64,000 bases of DNA, from the NCBI GenBank assembly GCA_038325875.1, contig JBBQJL010000007.1, positions 50 to 64,049 on the forward strand. Reading direction: 5' to 3'. The stretch is from Candidatus Limnocylindrales bacterium (lineage in GTDB: Bacteria > Chloroflexota > Limnocylindria > Limnocylindrales > CSP1-4). The translations under genes and the position numbers were made by a program. Below, piece after piece: positions 10,586 through 33,448 of this stretch. The notes below the pieces were generated by a model that worked only from the letters and a program-made list of their open reading frames with translations, had not been told where the DNA came from and did no database searches. Within the stretch, counting starts at the first letter, position 1. The number at the start of each line of letters is the position of its first letter.

Positions 10586-11174
10586 CCGACAGCCCGTCCC
10601 CGAGTGCAGGTGCCGCGCCCGCCAGCCCCGGCACGAACGCCAGCAGGAGGAGCAGCAGGATCGCCGCGCTGATCGCGGCGTCACCGAGGTTGAACGTCCA
10701 GAAGCGCACGCTGCCGAGGCCCGCATCGACCCAGTCGACGACGTAGCCCAGCCGGATCCGGTCGATCAGGTTGCCGCTGGCGCCGCCGAGGAGCAGGCCG
10801 AGGGCGATCGACAGCAACGGGCTCCGCCCCGAACGGGCGTGGTAGCCGACGATCAGGGCCAGGACGCCGATGCTGGCGATGGCCAGGACCGGCGCCGCCG
10901 TCCCGAACAGGCCGAACAGGGCCCCGTCGTTCTTCGAGTGGATCAGCCGGACGAGGTCGCCCAGCAGGGCGACCGCCGTCCCGGGCACGATGTTGGCCAC
11001 CACCCACACCTTCGACAGTTGGTCGACGACGAGGACCGCGGCGGCCACCCCGAAGAACAGCAACCAGGCCGGGCGACCGGAAGCGGTCGGAGCCGCACCG
11101 CTGACAGGCGGCGCGACGGGCGCGTCGGTCTGGTCCAGGTCGCTGCCTCCGTCGAGTCGAGTGGGTCCGGTCAC
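10578..11174 (-). CDS. lspA: Lipoprotein signal peptidase (signal peptidase II)
   Basis: Four-TM profile with NDGALFG, GGASGNLIDR and FNLGDAAI motifs. GTG at 11174 follows the ileS stop. Confidence 0.88.
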   Translation of the reverse strand: MTGPTRLDGGSDLDQTDAPVAPPVSGAAPTASGRPAWLLFFGVAAAVLVVDQLSKVWVVANIVPGTAVALLGDLVRLIHSKNDGALFGLFGTAAPVLAIASIGVLALIVGYHARSGRSPLLSIALGLLLGGASGNLIDRIRLGYVVDWVDAGLGSVRFWTFNLGDAAISAAILLLLLLAFVPGLAGAAPALGDGLSDG

Positions 11175-11178
11175 AAGC

Positions 11179-14100
11179 CTAGCCGTCGACGCGCCGAAGG
11201 GCGAGCCGGACCGTGCCGGCCTCCAGCTCGACCGACGCAGCCGCCCCGCCGCTCGGTCCCGGCCCAGCGCCGATCGAGCCGGCCAGGGTCTCGGCGGCGA
11301 CCGCGTCGAGGTAGGGCACGATGGGCTGCGGGAGTGGTTCGACCCAGACCTGGATCCGGTCGTCGAGGGCCAGCTCGGCCTCGCGGCGGAGGTCCTGGAT
11401 GGCGCGCTGGAGCTCGCGCGCATCGCCCTCCGCACGGAGCTCTGGCGTCAGCGAGGTGTCGATGACGACGACCAGGCCGTCATCGTGGGCGACCGCGGTG
11501 CCCGGCCGGGGCGACGCCAGGATCTCGACCTCGTCCGCGGCCAGGGTCACTCCGCCGAGGGTGACCGACCCGTCGGAGTGGATCTCGAACTCGCCGGCCC
11601 GCGCCGCCGCCATCACCGCCGGGACAGACCCGCCGAGCTTCTTGCCGATCTTGGGCAGGAGCGGCTTGATCCGCCGCTCGACCAGCTCGGACTCATCGCC
11701 GATGAGCTCGACCGACTTGACGTTGACCTCGGCGGCGAGGAGCGCCAGCAGAGCATCCCGCTCCGCGAGCTGGCCGCCGGGCAGCGCCAGCCACAGGCGC
11801 GCCAGCGGCTGGCGGACCTTCAGCCCGGCCTGACCGCGCAGCGTCCGGACGAGCTCGACGGCGCGGCGCGTGGTGGCCACCGCCGCCTCGAGCGGCAGGT
11901 CGCGCTGGGCCGCCGACTCGGCCGTCGGCCAGGCCGTCAGGTGGACGCTGTCCGGGGCCGTCGGGTCGTTCGCCCCGACCAGGTTGTCGTAGATCCCCTC
12001 GGTCATGAACGGCAGGATCGGGGCCAGCACCCTGGCCAGGGTGACCAGCGCAAGGTGGAGCGTGGCGAATGCCGCGTCGCGGTCGGCGGCATCGTCGGAT
12101 CGGGAGAAGCGCCGGCGGGAACGACGCAGATACCAGGTCGACAGGTCGTCGATCGCCTCGTCGATCGCCCGGGTGGCCCCCTCCGCGTCGTAGTCCCGCA
12201 GTCGATCCTCGGCCCTGGCCGCGACGCCGGCCATCCGCGACAGGATCCAGCGATCGAGCACCGGCCGATCCGACACTGCGGCAGCCCGGGACGTGTGCGC
12301 GTCCCAGCCGGCCAGTCGGGCGTAGGTCACGAAGAAGGCGTACACGTTCCACAGGATCAGCAAGCCGCGCCGCGCCTCGTCGGCGGCGTGCCAGCCGAAC
12401 AGGATGTTGTCGTCCGGGCGGGCGCTGGCGTACATCCAGCGCATGACGTCGACACCCATCCGGTCGGCCGCCTCGTCGAACTCGATCGAGTTGCCGGCGC
12501 TCTTGTGCATCGGCCGGCCGTCCTCGCCGAGCAGAGTCGCGAAGCCGAAGATCGTCCTGAACGGCGGCTCGCGCCGGAGGACCGTGCTCATCGCCAGCAT
12601 CGCGTAGAACCAGTTCCGGAACTTGCCCGGGCAGCTCTCGGTGATGAAGTCGGCCGGGAACCAGCGGGCCCAGAAGTCGGGATCCTCGCGATAGTGGATG
12701 GTCGAGAACGGAACGATCCCGGCATCGAGCCAGACGTTGCCGACATCGGGGATCCGCGAGATCGGCTGGCCGCACCCGGAGCAGGCGATCCGGACCGCAT
12801 CGATGTGCGGTCGATGGGGCGTGTGGCCGTCGAACGCGTCCCACCCGTCGACGGCCCGCTCGCGAAGCTCCTCGCGTCCGCCGATGACGGTCACCGCGCC
12901 GCACTCGCCACAGTCGTAGATCGGCAGGGCCAGGCCCCAGTAGCGCTTCTTGCTGATCATCCAGTCGTGCATGTCGTGGAGCCAGCGGATCTCCTGGTCG
13001 TAGCCGAACCCGGGTAGCCAGCGGATGTCGTCGACGACCTGCATGATCTGGTAGCGCAGGCTCCGCTCGACCTCGTCGGCGGTCAGCTCCTGGCGCGGTC
13101 GGTCGTAGACCTCGCCCATGCTGATGAACCACTCGTCGACCAGCCGGAAGATGAGCGGCGTACCGCACCGCCAGCAGTGCGGGTAGCGGTGGGTGATCGT
13201 CTCGAGCCGGTAGAACCGGTCGTGGTGGCGGAGGTGCTCGACGATCGGGTCGGCCACGTCGCGCACGTCGCGCCCGGTGTACGGCCCGAACCCGTCGAGG
13301 TAGATGCCCGATTCGTCGAGCGGGGCGATGACCGGCAGGCCGAGCAGCTTGCCCAGCGCGAAGTCCTCGGCGCCGCAGCCCGGAGCGATGTGGACGATCC
13401 CCGTGCCCTCCTCCTCGCCGACTTCGGTCCAGGACACGATCCGATGGCGGTAGGGCGTACCGGGTTCGTCGCGCGTACCGGCCGCGAACGCCGTCCGGAC
13501 GGCATGCAGGTCGTCGAACGGTCCGTCGTAGACCCAGCCGATGAGGTCGCTGCCGGGGCGCTCGTCGAGGACCTCGAACGGACCGACGAGCGCGCTCTTG
13601 AGCGTCCCACGGGCGACCCACAGGCGGTCGTCGCCCTGGCCGACGAGGACGTAGCGGAGATCCGGTCCGACCGCGGCGGCGACGTTCGAGGTGAGCGTCC
13701 ACGGTGTCGTCGTCCAGACCAGCAGCGCCTCACCGGGTCGATCGACCAGCGGGAAGCGCACGGTCAGGCCGGGGTCCTCGCGGTCGCGGTAGCCCTCGGT
13801 CATCTCGTGCTGACTCATGCCCGTCCCGCAGCGGGCGCACCAGGGCATCGTGTCGTGGCCCTTGTACAGCCAGCCGCGCCGATGGCATTCGGCCAGGAAC
13901 CCCCAGATCAGGTCGTTGTTCTCGTTGCTGAAGGTGAAGTAGCTCCCCCCGAGGTCCGGCATCCCGAGCCGCCCAATGAGCATCTCGACCGAGTCGGTGA
14001 CCGGCCCATCGGGGCCGTCGATGGTGGTGACCTGGGCCGGGTCGTCGGCCAGCAGGTCGCGCAGCCGGCGCAGCTCCTGCGGGTCGTTCCAGTCCATCCA

Positions 14101-23285: not shown

Positions 23286-23607
23286 ACCGTGAGTGGTCGG
23301 AATTGGCGTCCGCAAGAGTGAGAGGGTGCTCGAAACGTGCTCTCGGAGCCTCGACCGAGCGTGCTCGACACCGTTCCCACCACTCCCGGTGGCGCGGTGC
23401 CGGCTCGTGAGAGTGCGCGCCGCGTCATACGGCCGGGGGCGGTGCTCTGGGCCGTCAGCCTCTCCGGCGGGCCATTGGCGGCCGGAGAGCACGCCCAGCA
23501 GCCCTGCCACCGGCGCGAATCCGGTGGATCTGGCAGGCCGGATGGTGATCCGGACCGCCGGGGGCGGCAGGGAGCGAGGCGAGGCTCGGCGGACTCCGGC
23601 GTCGATC

Positions 23608-23671: not shown

Positions 23672-23739
23672 CCCCGGGTCGTGGCGGGCCCGATGTATCC
23701 TCACCTGCGACCGACATCCGCCGCCCACCCGGAGACGAC

Positions 23740-24963
23740 GTGCCCGCCAGTTCAATCCTGCTTCTCGATACCGATGCCCTGGCCGGCGAGGCCATTCGGA
23801 CCGTGCTGACCGGGGTCGGCTATGCGGTCGACACCGTGACCGGCGTCGCAGAGGCGATCCAGGTCGCCGCCGATCACAGCTTGGTCATCATCGACGTGAC
23901 CGGCCCGACCACGACGCCGGCCGACGTCTGCCGCGAGATCCGGGGAACGCCGAGCCTGGCGGCCGTCCCGGTCCTGTGCATGTCCGAGGCGGACGACGTC
24001 GAGGAGCGGATCCGCTTCCTGGAGGCCGGGGCGGATGACGTCGTGGCCAAGCCATTCGACCGACGCGAGCTCGAGGCCCGGGTCGAGGCCCTCCTCGTCC
24101 GCTTCCAGCGCTCGCGCGGTGCCGTTTCGGCCATCGGCGGCAGCCTGTTCGAGCAGCCCCGTCGGATGGTCGCGGTGTACAGCCCCAAGGGCGGCGTCGG
24201 GACCACCACCATCGCGGTCAACGTCGCGGTGGCCCACGCCGTCTCGCGCCCCGGACGCGTCCTCATCGTCGATCTCGACCTGCAGTTCGGCCAGGTCGCC
24301 ACCCACCTCAACATCTTCCCTCGCCAAACGGTGGCGGACCTGGCCCGTGACGAGCAGTCCCAGCGCGAGCCCGAGCTGCTCCGGACCTATACCAGCCGCC
24401 ACGAGGCGTCCGGGCTGGACGTCCTTGCCGCGCCGGGTTCGCCGGAGCTGGCCGAACTGGTCACCGCCGCCCACGTCGAGCGGATCCTCGAGACGGCCCT
24501 GCTGGCGTACGAGGCGGTCGTTGTCGATGCCGGTTCGACCCTCGACGAGCGGTCGCTCGCGGCCCTCGAGGGAGCCGAGGTGGTCCTCCTGCCGGTCTAC
24601 CCCGAGATCTCCGCGCTCAAGGCCGTCCACTCGTTCCTTGACTTCGTGAACGAGGCCGGCTCGATCGCGTCGAAGACCACGTTCGTGCTCAACAGCATGT
24701 TCGCCAAAGAGCTCCTGAAGATGCGCGATGTCGAAAGCGGGCTCGGTGCCAAAGTCTCGCTGACCCTGCCCTACGACCCGCTCCTGTACCTGAAGGCTGT
24801 CAACGAGGGCAACCCGGTGGTCATCGGAGCGGCCCGGACGCCGGTCGCCGCCGCCATGACGAGGCTGGCCACGGCCGCCTTCGGCAGCGCGGCTGCACAG
24901 GCGAAGACTCCCGCCGACGAGAAGAAGTCACGCGGCCTGGGCGGCCTGCTCAAGCGCACCTGA
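23740..24963 (+). CDS. Response-regulator receiver domain fused to TadZ/CpaE-like ParA/MinD-family ATPase
   Basis: REC: ILLLDTD...LVIIDV...CMSEADD...VVAKPF. ATPase: VAVYSPKGGVGTTTIAVN (deviant Walker A without the second Lys) and VVVDAG. GTG at 23740 is preceded by GGAGA; the track N-terminal 149 aa are not coding-like. Confidence 0.85.
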   Translation: MPASSILLLDTDALAGEAIRTVLTGVGYAVDTVTGVAEAIQVAADHSLVIIDVTGPTTTPADVCREIRGTPSLAAVPVLCMSEADDVEERIRFLEAGADDVVAKPFDRRELEARVEALLVRFQRSRGAVSAIGGSLFEQPRRMVAVYSPKGGVGTTTIAVNVAVAHAVSRPGRVLIVDLDLQFGQVATHLNIFPRQTVADLARDEQSQREPELLRTYTSRHEASGLDVLAAPGSPELAELVTAAHVERILETALLAYEAVVVDAGSTLDERSLAALEGAEVVLLPVYPEISALKAVHSFLDFVNEAGSIASKTTFVLNSMFAKELLKMRDVESGLGAKVSLTLPYDPLLYLKAVNEGNPVVIGAARTPVAAAMTRLATAAFGSAAAQAKTPADEKKSRGLGGLLKRT

Positions 24964-25111
24964 GCGGCGGCTCGAGTGCGCCGCATGCACGCGCAACGGT
25001 CCACGGCGAAGGTACGGCTTGACGCCGGGGGCATGCCCGACCAAGGTGAGGCACTCGGGCCCCGCAGCTGACTCCGAAGGCAACGACGCTCGACCGGCAC
25101 CGGTGACCATC

Positions 25112-25915
25112 ATGCGTCGTTCCCTCGTCATCCTGCTCGCAGGCGGGCTGCTGCTCCTGGCCTCACTCTCGCTCGCCAGCGTGGCCACCGCGGCGACGAT
25201 CGCCCCGACCACGACCTGCAGCAACGGTGTCGGCAACACGGGTGGCCTCGGTCGGATCTGCCGGGTCACCATCGTCAACACGATCACGGCCAGCGGCGGA
25301 TCAGCCAGGGTCACCGTGCGCGAGTGTCACGGCGCCGCGGGCAACCCACAGGCGGCCTGCACGACCAGGACGATGATCCTGGGAAAGCCGGTCAGCGTGG
25401 TCAATCAGTGCAACGACTCGATCAACAGCGGCGGCGGCACCCTCCGCTGCAGCGTCAAGGTCACCAACCTGTTCATCGGCCTCAGTCCGGGCTCGACGGC
25501 CGCCACGGTCAACCAGTGCGTCGGTTCCGGCGGCGGGATCACCACCGGCTGTGATCCCTTCCCGGCAACCACGACCGGGGCGGCGATCACGCAGTGCAAT
25601 GGCTCGGCCAACGGCGGGACCCTGGTCGGTCTCACCTGCACGGCGACCGGCAAGAAGTCTTCGGCACACGGCGTCCGGATCAACCAATGCAACGGTTCGG
25701 CCAACGGTGGCGGGGCGCTGGTCATCTGCTCCGCCAGCATCACCAACAGAACGGTGTCTTCCACGACGCCCACGATCCCGCCGACGTCCACGCTGGCGGC
25801 GGCCGACGTCCCCCGATCCGGACCGTCCCCATTGGTCTTCGTCGCGATCTTCCTCATCGCCTTTGTCGTCTTCGTCGCCGGCGGCCGAACGAGGCGGGCG
25901 ACCCGCGCCCGCTGA
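25112..25915 (+). CDS. Secreted Cys-rich repeat protein with C-terminal TM anchor / sorting-like signal
   Basis: Signal peptide MRRSLVILLAGGLLLLASLSLASVATA. Twelve Cys in six pairs form repeats such as NQCNGSANGGGALVICSASITN. The C-terminus is PPTST..PRSG..hydrophobic helix..RTRRATRAR. GC3 is high. Confidence 0.8.
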   Translation: MRRSLVILLAGGLLLLASLSLASVATAATIAPTTTCSNGVGNTGGLGRICRVTIVNTITASGGSARVTVRECHGAAGNPQAACTTRTMILGKPVSVVNQCNDSINSGGGTLRCSVKVTNLFIGLSPGSTAATVNQCVGSGGGITTGCDPFPATTTGAAITQCNGSANGGTLVGLTCTATGKKSSAHGVRINQCNGSANGGGALVICSASITNRTVSSTTPTIPPTSTLAAADVPRSGPSPLVFVAIFLIAFVVFVAGGRTRRATRAR

Positions 25916-25931
25916 ACCCGTCCTCTCCGCC

Positions 25932-26020
25932 GCGGGTCCGTGGTGCCGAAGGTGGGGTTCGAACCCACACGACCCTTGCGAGTCAGCGGAGTTTAAGTCC
26001 GCCGCGTCTGCCGGTTCCGC
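25932..26020 (-). tRNA. tRNA-Leu(UAA), copy A (A37)
   Basis: Manual cloverleaf gives a 7-bp acceptor gccgaag/cttcggc, anticodon arm gcgga-CUUAAAC-tccgc, a long variable arm, a GGTTCGAA T-loop, and an encoded CCA. Confidence 0.8.
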
Positions 26021-26051
26021 CACTTCGGCCGACGCAAGGGTAGCGCCTGGC

Positions 26052-26249
26052 TCAGACCGACTTGCCGACCGTGCGTACTCGGCGAGGCCTGGGTCGCCGA
26101 CGCGACAGCTCCCCGAATGCGAAGAACGCGACGACGCCGGCCAGGAGCGGCAGGACCGGGATCGGGGCATCTGCCCGACCGGATCGGCCGACGCTGTCGG
26201 TGCTCGTCGGCGGCATCGTCGTGATCTCGATCGAGCTCAGGACGAACAT
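26052..26249 (-). pseudogene. Chimeric small ORF: C-terminal fragment of the Cys-rich-repeat family fused to an out-of-frame flp remnant
   Basis: It encodes ...IEITTMPPTSTDSVGRSGRADAPIPVLPLLAGVVAFFAFGELSRRRPRPRRVRTVGKSV. The last 38 nt plus 26073-26089 match the flp 3' end and the GLAEYA codons, with a 79-nt deletion relative to flp at 26661-26846. Confidence 0.5.
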
Positions 26250-26491
26250 CCGCCGGCACTTGGTGATCGCCTGCCGGGTCGGGACCGGTCCACCGGCGGC
26301 CGCAATTCTGGTGGGAGTCGCGAGTCTGCGAGGCCTGTCAGCCATGATGCGGATGATCGCATGAGGGTGGCGGGGTTCAATCTGGTCCGGGTTCAAGTCA
26401 GCCGAGTCGCCGCGAGACGCACGATCAACTCGGGCGCCTGCTCGTGCCCGCTCCCCCGTCCTCGGGCGTCTTGCCGGCTACGACACAGGAA

Positions 26492-26520
26492 GGCTCCCTC
26501 GGGCCTGGCCCGCGGGAGCC
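26492..26520 (-). terminator. Candidate hairpin downstream of tRNA-Leu copy B
   Basis: A 7-bp stem GGCTCCC/GGGAGCC with a 15-nt loop. The U-tract is weak (ttcctgtgt). Confidence 0.25.
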
Positions 26521-26549
26521 TCTGAACTTAGTGTCGATGCGCCGTCTCG

Positions 26550-26638
26550 TGGTGCCGAAGGTGGGGTTCGAACCCACACGGCCCTTACGGGTCAGCGGAG
26601 CTTAAGTCCGCCGCGTCGGCCGATTCCGCCACTTCGGC
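26550..26638 (-). tRNA. tRNA-Leu(UAA), copy B (G37)
   Basis: Same cloverleaf as copy A, with anticodon loop CUUAAGC and about 10 substitutions relative to copy A. CCA is encoded. Confidence 0.85.
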
Positions 26639-26660
26639 CGACGCGAGGGTAGCGCCTGGC

Positions 26661-26846
26661 TCAGACGGACTTGCCGACCGTGCTCAGGATCTTGCTGACC
26701 TGGCCACCCAGGAACAGCAGGGCGATGATGGCGACGATCGCGATGAGCGCGAGGATGAGCGCGTACTCGGCGAGACCTTGACCGTCCTGATCGTCCCGAT
26801 CCAGGGCGATCTGGCTGCGTACGTATAGTCCGAGAAGGACCGACAT
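26661..26846 (-). CDS. flp: Flp/Fap family type IVb (Tad) pilin precursor
   Basis: 61 aa: a polar leader, then the G-QGLAEY Flp motif and the hydrophobic stretch ALILALIAIVAIIALLFLGG. A GGAG SD lies 8-11 nt upstream of the ATG. Confidence 0.85.
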   Translation of the reverse strand: MSVLLGLYVRSQIALDRDDQDGQGLAEYALILALIAIVAIIALLFLGGQVSKILSTVGKSV

Positions 26847-27074
26847 GCCGTTCTCCGTTCGTCTTGCCCGCCGATACGGCGGATGATGATGGCGTTCGCC
26901 GTGACCGGGATCGCGACGGACGACGCGGGCGGATACCCACCCTCGACGCAGGATCAGGATGGCAGCCCGGCGAGCCGCTCACGAGAGACCCGATGGTATG
27001 AGGGCGCCTACTGCAAACGTACTAGCAGACGCACCAGCTGCCGCCGCCCTTCGAGCGAGGACCAGCGGGGAGTG

Positions 27075-27150
27075 TGGAGGCGACGAGCGGATTCGAACCG
27101 CTGAATAGAGGTTTTGCAGACCTCCCCCTTAACCACTTGGGTACGTCGCC
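27075..27150 (-). tRNA. tRNA-Cys(GCA)
   Basis: Acceptor ggcgacg/cgtcgcc, anticodon loop CUGCAAA, U73 discriminator, encoded CCA. Confidence 0.9.
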
Positions 27151-27207
27151 CCGAGAACGGCCGTCGAAAAGGGGTACGGCCGGCCATTCGGTCAGTTTAC
27201 GTGGTCG

Positions 27208-27278
27208 TTGCCCCTCGAGGATTCGAACCTCGGTTCGCGGATTCAAAGTCCGCTGTCCTACCACTGGACGAAGGGGCA
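27208..27278 (-). tRNA. tRNA-Gln(UUG)
   Basis: 71 nt, with a U1-A72 pair, anticodon arm gcgga-CUUUGAA-tccgc and T-loop TTCGAAT. CCA is not encoded. Confidence 0.85.
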
Positions 27279-27333
27279 GCGGACGAGTCGCCGGCGGTCG
27301 TCGGCCGGCCCGACCGGGCGCCGAACCAGATCT

Positions 27334-27409
27334 TGGAGCGGGAGACGGGGTTCGAACCCGCGACCTCAACCTTGGCAAGGTTGCGCTCTGCCAACTGAGC
27401 TACTCCCGC
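27334..27409 (-). tRNA. tRNA-Gly(GCC)
   Basis: gcgggag acceptor, anticodon loop UUGCCAA, encoded CCA. Confidence 0.9.
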
Positions 27410-27426
27410 CGGATGCACCACCGATG

Positions 27427-27502
27427 TGGTGCCGAGAGCCAGATTCGAACTGGCGACACCGCGATTTTCAGTCGCGTGCTCTACCAACTGAGCTATCTCG
27501 GC
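27427..27502 (-). tRNA. tRNA-Phe(GAA)
   Basis: gccgaga acceptor, GCTCAGTTGGTAGAGC D-arm, anticodon loop CUGAAAA, encoded CCA. Confidence 0.92.
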
Positions 27503-33085: not shown

Positions 33086-33162
33086 TGGTGGGCGGTGAGG
33101 GACTCGAACCCCCGACATCCTCGGTGTAAGCGAGGCGCTCTGACCGACTGAGCTAACCGCCC
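33086..33162 (-). tRNA. tRNA-Val(UAC)
   Basis: gggcggt acceptor, anticodon arm cctcg-CUUACAC-cgagg, encoded CCA. Confidence 0.9.
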
Positions 33163-33244
33163 GGGCGCGAGCAGGATACCGCCCGCGGTCCATCTGAATC
33201 GGAACGGCGGTCCAGGTGGACCGCCGTCGGGATCAGTGCGGGAG

Positions 33245-33329
33245 TGGTGCCCAGGCCGGGACTTGAACCCGGATGAGTTGCCTCATACGCCCCTCAAACG
33301 TACGCGTATACCAATTCCGCCACCTGGGC
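33245..33329 (-). tRNA. tRNA-Leu(GAG)
   Basis: gcccagg acceptor, anticodon loop UUGAGGG, long variable arm, encoded CCA. Confidence 0.88.
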
Positions 33330-33361
33330 ATCGCACGCTGTTCTGAGGCTCGGTCGAGGGG

Positions 33362-33448
33362 TGGTACCGAGGAAGGGATTTGAACCCATACGCCCTTGCG
33401 GACACTAGCTCCTGAAGCTAGCGCGTCTACCGATTCCGCCACCTCGGC
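33362..33448 (-). tRNA. tRNA-Leu(CAG)
   Basis: gccgagg acceptor, anticodon arm ctagc-UUCAGGA-gctag, long variable arm, encoded CCA. Confidence 0.88.

Follow-up and report, generated by a model that had tools for sequence, protein, structure and literature searches.

A modular, LPXTG-like C-terminal tail shared by DUF8253 and Ice_binding-like proteins of Candidatus Limnocylindria

A C-terminal tail that joins an LPXTG-like core, a second conserved element, a transmembrane (TM) helix and an Arg-rich end recurs in two otherwise unrelated protein families of Candidatus Limnocylindria, and on balance we lean towards reading it as a lineage-specific variant of the LPXTG/sortase type of signal that, we infer from sequence comparison, depends on a sortase. 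The tail was found in a 64,000-nt stretch of DNA from a Candidatus Limnocylindrales bacterium (contig JBBQJL010000007.1 of assembly GCA_038325875.1, positions 50 to 64,049; hereafter the window; G+C content 70.8%), where it ends the product of a plus-strand gene at 25112–25915, a secreted Cys-rich surface protein of the family DUF8253. An earlier note on the same DNA had drawn attention to this gene, to a small convergent open reading frame (ORF) with a similar ending and to a possible sorting signal of a new type. Limnocylindria are abundant, uncultured Chloroflexota of soil and fresh water, and to our knowledge nothing is known of how they build their cell surface; two surface-protein families and a common signal have now been identified for them.

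A secreted, Cys-rich protein of family DUF8253

The coding sequence (CDS) runs from an ATG at 25112 to a stop at 25915 and encodes 267 amino acids. Its G+C content at third codon positions (GC3) of 0.88 is typical of real genes in the window, and an identical protein, P0001, is present in the public collection. Residues 1–28 (25112–25195), MRRSLVILLAGGLLLLASLSLASVATAA, form a Sec-type signal peptide ending in SVATAA; the family alignment shows this region to be conserved, and the AlphaFold2 (AF2) model has a helix at residues 2–21. The domain that follows (residues 36–212; 25217–25747) carries six Cys pairs, at 36/50, 72/83, 100/113, 136/147, 162/176 and 193/206, so that the signal peptide and the six pairs described in the earlier note are both in place. 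All 12 Cys are invariant across an alignment of 79 DUF8253 homologs. The repeat unit comprises ~30 amino acids of the form [IV]-N-Q-C-N-G-S-x-N-G-G-G-x-L-x-C-x-A-x-I-T-N, and three of the Cys units are still seen as DNA repeats (25399, 25585 and 25678).

The repeat family, which the earlier note did not recognise, proved to be catalogued in Pfam: the precomputed annotation of P0001 and of all 120 listed homologs is PF26781.1, for which the name DUF8253 was taken from the contig index. Our own Pfam and NCBIfam scans of the full protein, its tail and the small ORF, made with a Pfam copy that did not hold PF26781, returned no family match, and literature searches on PF26781 or DUF8253 found no paper and no described function. 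The repeat domain is thus already catalogued; the shared sorting tail and the lineage restriction are worked out in the present analysis. A homolog search yielded 1,709 scored relatives at 60–80% identity, and the counts of tails and annotations given here come from the 120 that were listed. A scan of one genome per species placed relatives in 137 stretches, almost all from metagenome-assembled genomes labelled Candidatus Limnocylindria/Limnocylindrales or Chloroflexota, and each fetched locus held at most one DUF8253 gene.

The AF2 model consists entirely of beta-hairpins at a predicted local distance difference test score (pLDDT) of 65, that is, at moderate confidence, and a Foldseek search of this moderately confident model against PDB gave no match with E<0.3. 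The product of the window gene is probably an all-beta surface protein of Limnocylindria-type Chloroflexota, exported by the Sec route and stapled by disulfides. Coding fragments resembling DUF8253 (53–76% identity) also lie on the minus strand of another locus (L088, 14914–15445), ~4 kb from an ice-binding gene whose product has an [LV]PNAA tail; no gene is called there, and the fragments may be a pseudogene.

A tail of fixed geometry on two unrelated passenger domains

Beyond the domain, a short Ser/Thr/Pro linker (residues 213–221; 25748–25774) leads into the tail, which in the window protein consists of the LPXTG-like core IPPTST (residues 222–227; 25775–25792), the second element PRSG (residues 234–237; 25811–25822), a TM segment (residues 240–258; 25829–25885; an AF2 helix at 240–261) and the Arg-rich cytoplasmic end RTRRATRAR (residues 259–267; 25886–25912). 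Had the motif been absent from orthologs, chance similarity would have been the simplest reading; instead, it is conserved family-wide, with the consensus [LIVAT]-P-[PA]-T-[DSA]-T (P and T conserved to 90% or more), and is present in ~90 of the 120 DUF8253 homologs. Of 93 tails, 42 have L at the first position, and 63 place the start of the motif 19 residues before the hydrophobic run; the fifth position is D, S or A, never G. The hydrophobic segment and the basic C-terminal cluster are likewise conserved among the homologs, and the linker before the motif is an S/T/G/P insert that varies in length and composition.

Closer to the membrane, the second element takes the form P-[GRAE]-S-[GD] and is most often PGSG, which lies 2–4 residues before the hydrophobic segment. 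The earlier note had taken RSG itself as a motif; a second conserved element does exist, but the RSG of the window is a minority form of it (GSG 62, RSD 15, ASG 14 and RSG 11 among the 120 homolog tails).

A profile built from the tail only (47 positions) had 25 matches at E≤1e-3 among 1.84 billion representative proteins; these comprised DUF8253 fragments, Ice_binding-like (PF11999) proteins, a Big_3_5 domain with the tail, and two false positives. The latter, P0132 and P0142, are long repetitive proteins that match through several repeats; they look unrelated and were set aside as false positives of a short profile. Their repeat unit is of the type 'MPTGPTGGPTLIRLVTIGLVALILHAYRSYRW'. When the 120 nearest homologs of one tail-bearing Ice_binding-like protein were sampled, 83 carried the tail, with scores of up to 81 bits on the hidden Markov model (HMM) derived from DUF8253, and the 19-residue spacing from motif to TM segment recurred in 50 of 81 Ice_binding-like tails. 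These Limnocylindria proteins (PF11999/DUF3494) share with DUF8253 not only the tail but also a position directly upstream of YggT and/or Transgly_assoc genes, whereas their passenger domain is unrelated to DUF8253 in both sequence and predicted fold.

One tail of fixed geometry on two unrelated passenger domains is a hallmark of sorting and anchoring modules. To judge by the sequences, the tail is modular and sorting-signal-like and not a product of chance, which is clear for the main gene, and the recurrence of motif and spacing outside DUF8253 bears out the C-terminal sorting-like module that had been proposed. Across the 1.27 Mb of flanking DNA surveyed around DUF8253 genes, HMM and regular-expression searches found no third cargo family with the tail, only frameshifted copies of DUF8253, and the cargo repertoire therefore looks small. 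The pattern P-x-T-[DSA]-T, 19 residues before a TM helix, offers a means of searching for Limnocylindria surface proteins that current annotation pipelines miss.

Resemblance to LPXTG and class D sortase signals

As the earlier note had anticipated, no curated sorting-domain model detects the tail. None of the NCBIfam CTERM models (PEP-, PGF-, GlyGly-, MYXO-CTERM and others) matched the full protein at E≤1 or the tail at E≤10. The model NF058595, 'lipo-invert putative C-terminal anchoring domain' (invert_tail), scored the window tail at 14.0 bits and the small ORF at 15.7 bits, both below its cut-off of 37 bits; these weak matches cover 25745–25912 on the plus strand and 26055–26249 on the minus strand, and a literature search on this recent model found nothing relevant. 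With the LPXTG_anchor model TIGR01167, the tails of relatives score 13.4–13.7 bits, just under the cut-off of 15.9 bits.

The composition of the tail nevertheless places it close to a known type, contrary to the suggestion that its motif lies outside all of them: the P-x-T-[D/S/A] core is LPXTG-like and of the LPxT[A/S] class D kind. The hydrophobic segment and positively charged C-terminus that characterise LPXTG anchors are present in the window protein (residues 240–267), and only the pentapeptide, I-P-P-T-S, departs from L-P-x-T-G. Such departures have precedents, as experiments support LPDTS and LPDTA in Bacillus subtilis and LPNTA in Bacillus anthracis as signals of class D sortases (PMC3222306). 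NCBIfam, moreover, holds a model for an 'LPxTATN-specific class D sortase' (NF058671). Class D signals, which include those of YhcR (LPDTS) and YfkN (LPDTA), the partners of SrtD/YhcS, have the same tripartite layout and the same P-x-T core with D, S or A rather than G after the Thr, and they too are borne by secreted surface proteins. They differ in that position 1 of the window family is often not Leu, that its 13-residue spacer includes P-x-S-G, and that its tail falls below the TIGR01167 cut-off.

More classical tails occur on distant homologs of the Ice_binding-like cargo. Fourteen of these proteins end in LP[SGA]T[AST]T, a short spacer, a TM helix and RRRR, and ten have [LV]PN[AT]A tails; the short-tailed relatives keep LPxTAT and lack PGSG. 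Because these distant relatives carry classical LPxT-type tails, and because a sortase gene lies adjacent to some of them (see below), the window tail is read here as an LPxT[D/S/A] variant, and it is most aptly placed within the LPXTG/sortase type, as a variant, rather than in a separate category.

Sortase-fold homologs with Ser in place of Cys

Sister lineages with LPSTATN-type cargo point to candidate enzymes. In three loci (L086, L089 and L090), a gene for an LPSTAT[D/N]-tailed protein is followed within 60–120 nt by a PF04203 sortase gene and then by YggT, with Transgly_assoc additionally present in L089 and L090, which are two near-identical loci. In at least six loci, the gene immediately before YggT and/or Transgly_assoc is DUF8253, in the position that is otherwise occupied by the ice-binding/sortase pair. 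The order Ice_binding–sortase–YggT–Transgly_assoc forms a recurrent envelope cluster (L086, 10001–12038, with the sortase homolog at 11070–11603; L089, 629–3066, with the sortase homolog at 1731–2222), and other genomes have the alternative order DUF8253–YggT–Transgly_assoc (L069, 10001–11778; L077, 10001–11782). Taken together, the two orders place both tail-bearing cargo families in equivalent positions. A further sortase homolog lies 1.7 kb from a DUF8253 gene (L017, 6868–7614).

A search seeded with two sortase homologs gave 4,735 matches, some of them labelled Limnocylindria, and motifs were checked in the 120 that were listed (P0266–P0385). L-Q-T-S replaced the canonical TLxTC in 118 of 118 locatable motifs, and Ser was also found in all 62 metagenomic matches with a readable motif. 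A His (A-H-A-R) and L-Q-T-S-x-G are invariant among the homologs examined, and in phmmer alignments the Ser falls on the catalytic Cys of the solved sortases 4d70 and 5go5. A regular expression for TLxTC had come up empty in the 1.27 Mb around DUF8253 genes, in part because the local sortases carry Ser.

The homologs fall into two types. Type A proteins, of ~240 amino acids, have an N-terminal TM segment, the motif ELWLQTSEGP, mostly Lys at the Arg position and two Cys outside the catalytic motif, and are encoded next to nuo, redoxin, trehalose-phosphatase and CorA genes. Type B proteins, of ~165–205 amino acids, some with a lipobox, have the motif RLTLQTSTGP, keep the Arg, can contain no Cys at all and are encoded in the ice-binding operon. 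The type B match to PF04203 has E=2.5e-19. Throughout the domain, the AF2 model of type A exceeds a pLDDT of 90; its Foldseek matches are sortases of classes A and E, with a probability of 1.0 and TMt of 0.6–0.75. All homologs remain far below the NCBIfam cut-offs for sortase classes, the best being class E (47 versus 160 bits). In comparison with sortases of classes A–F (PF04203), the Limnocylindria proteins thus share the fold, the conserved His and an N-terminal membrane or lipid anchor, with type B also sharing the Arg and the location beside a substrate-like gene; unlike them, they have L-Q-T-S for T-L-x-T-C, and type A mostly has Lys for Arg. The same replacement of the catalytic Cys by Ser separates these candidates from the enzymes of class D systems.

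Sortases are described in the literature as cysteine transpeptidases, and our searches found no report of natural Ser-for-Cys sortases and nothing relevant on Limnocylindria and sortases. We know of no described sortase that lacks the catalytic Cys. Lacking this residue, the candidate enzymes may have no activity or may serve another purpose. As read from the sequences, the invariance of His and Ser and the sharing of an operon with a substrate-like gene argue for function. Only tentatively, as a possibility that we do not favour, do we advance that the tail may be what a hitherto undescribed class of sortase-fold transpeptidases recognises in its substrates. These enzymes would work with a Ser nucleophile (His/Ser plus Arg or Lys), comprise a housekeeping form (type A) and a cargo-linked form (type B), and be widespread in Candidatus Limnocylindria. 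Active Ser-sortases would change the textbook statement that sortases are cysteine transpeptidases and could yield ligation enzymes that are insensitive to oxidation and differ in specificity from those known; should they prove inactive, the anchoring of tail-bearing proteins becomes a testable question.

Weighing a sortase-dependent tail against other readings

If the tail acts as a sortase-type signal, the protein would first be exported, and the helix and basic tail would then hold it in the membrane. A membrane-bound enzyme of the sortase fold would recognise the P-x-T core, cut after the Thr and transfer the protein to the cell wall or to an envelope acceptor. The signal would consist of the LPXTG-like core, the 13-residue spacer ending in P-x-S-G, the hydrophobic helix and the Arg-rich stop-transfer tail, and the Ice_binding-like PF11999 proteins would be a second cargo family that uses it. 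The likely enzymes would be the Ser-for-Cys homologs of Limnocylindria, both type A, as a TM-anchored housekeeping enzyme, and type B; peptides containing LPPTDTLATTDVPGSG and LPSTATNDD would represent their putative substrates.

Several observations weigh against this mechanism, besides the missing catalytic Cys. Neither the window protein nor its tail matched TIGR01167 at E≤10. Leu holds position 1 in under half of the tails and Gly never holds position 5, and the spacer is longer than in classical signals, with the second conserved element, PGSG, beside the TM segment. Such a TM-adjacent placement is where the motifs of exosortase and archaeosortase systems sit. The 64-kb window contains no sortase gene, and only one sortase homolog was present in the 1.27 Mb around DUF8253 genes. 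In 80 metagenomic loci (432 kb) around type A homologs, no tail-bearing gene adjoined them; this still fits a housekeeping sortase with dispersed substrates and gives no positive support.

An uncleaved type I membrane anchor, in which P-P-T-D-T...P-G-S-G would be a juxtamembrane stalk (serving, for example, O-glycosylation or the spanning of the wall) that spread by domain shuffling, is the rival that survives best, although we consider it rather unlikely. A hydrophobic helix and a basic end suffice for stop-transfer, and the linkers ahead of the motif are rich in Thr and Pro. A weak likeness to haloarchaeal S-layer glycoproteins was seen in their Thr-rich C-terminus (E=0.029), adjacent processing enzymes do not recur from locus to locus, and the local sortase homologs are without the catalytic Cys. 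Against a stalk stands a 19-residue motif-to-TM spacing that is fixed in two unrelated families while the length of the linker is free; the P-x-T core, moreover, fits sortase signals, and homologous cargo of sister lineages combines LPSTATN signals with an adjacent sortase-domain gene.

The placement of PGSG, the commonest form of the second element, a few residues before the hydrophobic segment bears on a further possibility, namely that an enzyme other than a sortase (an exosortase or archaeosortase, a rhombosortase or a CPBP-type intramembrane protease) reads P-G-S-G. The order of motif, TM segment and basic cluster is common to PEP-CTERM, PGF-CTERM and GlyGly-CTERM systems; the PEP-CTERM/exosortase and PGF-CTERM/archaeosortase A systems also resemble the tail in a Pro-Gly element beside the TM segment and in a Thr-rich linker before the signal, as in haloarchaeal S-layer glycoproteins. 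Unlike in those systems, the best-conserved element of the window tail lies 13 residues from the TM segment, and the CTERM models, as described above, were silent. PGSG is less conserved than the P-x-T core, with the variants RSG, RSD, ASG and APG, and the short-tailed relatives that lack it retain LPxTAT. Among the called genes around cargo, which make a weak test, there was no candidate enzyme and no exosortase-family gene. We regard a non-sortase enzyme as quite improbable.

The suggestion in the earlier note of a component associated with the Tad/Flp pilus, which rested on the position of the gene between a CpaE/TadZ-like gene and flp, is very improbable and is not supported, since the homologs occur in unrelated contexts and the linkage to flp is not conserved (flp within 10 kb in only one of ~84 loci, and CpaE matches to the receiver domain only), and since in the window itself the gene is convergent with flp, with two tRNA-Leu genes between them.

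A small convergent ORF joined to a remnant of flp

The tail of the main gene has a partial counterpart downstream, in a 65-amino-acid ORF on the minus strand (26052–26249; extendable to a TTG at 26396). It reads MPPTST ... GRSG ... IPVLPLLAGVVAFFAFG ... SRRRPRPRR, with MPPTST at 26199–26216, GRSG at 26178–26189, the TM segment at 26112–26162 and the basic stretch at 26073–26105, and MPPTST stands 18 residues before its hydrophobic run. The order PPTST, RSG, helix and Arg cluster that the earlier note had seen in both ORFs can thus be read in the sequence, and the nucleotide strings common to the two are present, including as an inverted repeat. The frame has a coding-like GC3 of 0.8–1.0. It encodes no signal peptide and no passenger domain, its protein was not in the protein collection when starts at 26249 and 26345 were tried, and related loci contain no counterpart.

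The raw Smith–Waterman score of the small ORF against the tail of its neighbour was 55, above all 16,116 control tails, taken from other ORFs of the window and of related loci (99.9th percentile, 43), and above all 852 control tails with a hydrophobic run and a basic end; its best partners were DUF8253 tails. A composition-adjusted BLASTP comparison (E=0.13) and the family tail HMM (5.8 bits, with 13 bits of bias) both count against paralogy. Of the truncated paralog proposed earlier, a suggestion of kinship therefore stands with the Smith–Waterman score, but BLASTP and the HMM do not support it, and at best the ORF is a decayed relic joined to a remnant of flp. Relics of an Ice_binding 3′ end ('QAITKC' versus 'DTITKSTC') or of a DUF8253 repeat were also considered and rejected, as HMM scores did not exceed ~4 bits in any frame across 26030–26549.

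The genuine flp gene (26661–26846, minus strand) encodes a Flp/Fap pilin of 61 amino acids, identified by a PF04964 score of 24.2 bits, below the cut-off of 32.2 bits, together with a GLAEYA motif. A 136-nt direct repeat with 94% identity (25939–26074 and 26548–26683) contains tRNA-Leu(taa) and the last 24 nt of flp; ARAGORN placed the two tRNA copies on the minus strand at 25941–26029 (copy A) and 26550–26638 (copy B), one in each copy of the repeat. Repeats, alignment and a blastn comparison of flp with the small ORF identify 26052–26090 on the minus strand as a remnant of flp, made up of the 24 nt that read in frame ...TVGKSV-stop and an 18-nt 'GLAEYA' piece in another frame (26073–26090), with ~79 nt of flp deleted between them. 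The last ~40 nt of the small ORF are thus derived from flp, which supplied its stop codon and part of its Arg cluster. A simple tandem duplication of flp and tRNA-Leu was rejected, because colinearity ends at 136 nt and the 18-nt piece is displaced; the repeat structure may be the scar of a rearrangement or of integration at the tRNA. By its sequence, the small ORF is probably not a functional paralog but the relic of a 3′ end that coded for a tail and became involved in a local rearrangement; a decayed copy of the tail would have been joined to the flp remnant during the duplication of tRNA-Leu and flp. The 473 nt between the repeat copies have no counterpart in related loci.

Neighbouring features of the window

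Upstream of the DUF8253 gene, the CpaE/TadZ-like gene (23710–24963, plus strand) has Pfam matches to Response_reg and AAA_31 and encodes a receiver domain, beginning near residue 155, fused to a ParA/AAA_31 ATPase. Its ORF reaches ~140 codons upstream of the domain-matching region, to a GTG at 23293, and its true start is uncertain. A scan of 24900–27000 for promoters and terminators gave nothing informative. The window contains nine tRNA genes, the duplicated tRNA-Leu included, with minus-strand clusters for Cys, Gln, Gly and Phe at 27075–27502 and for Val, Leu and Leu at 33086–33448.

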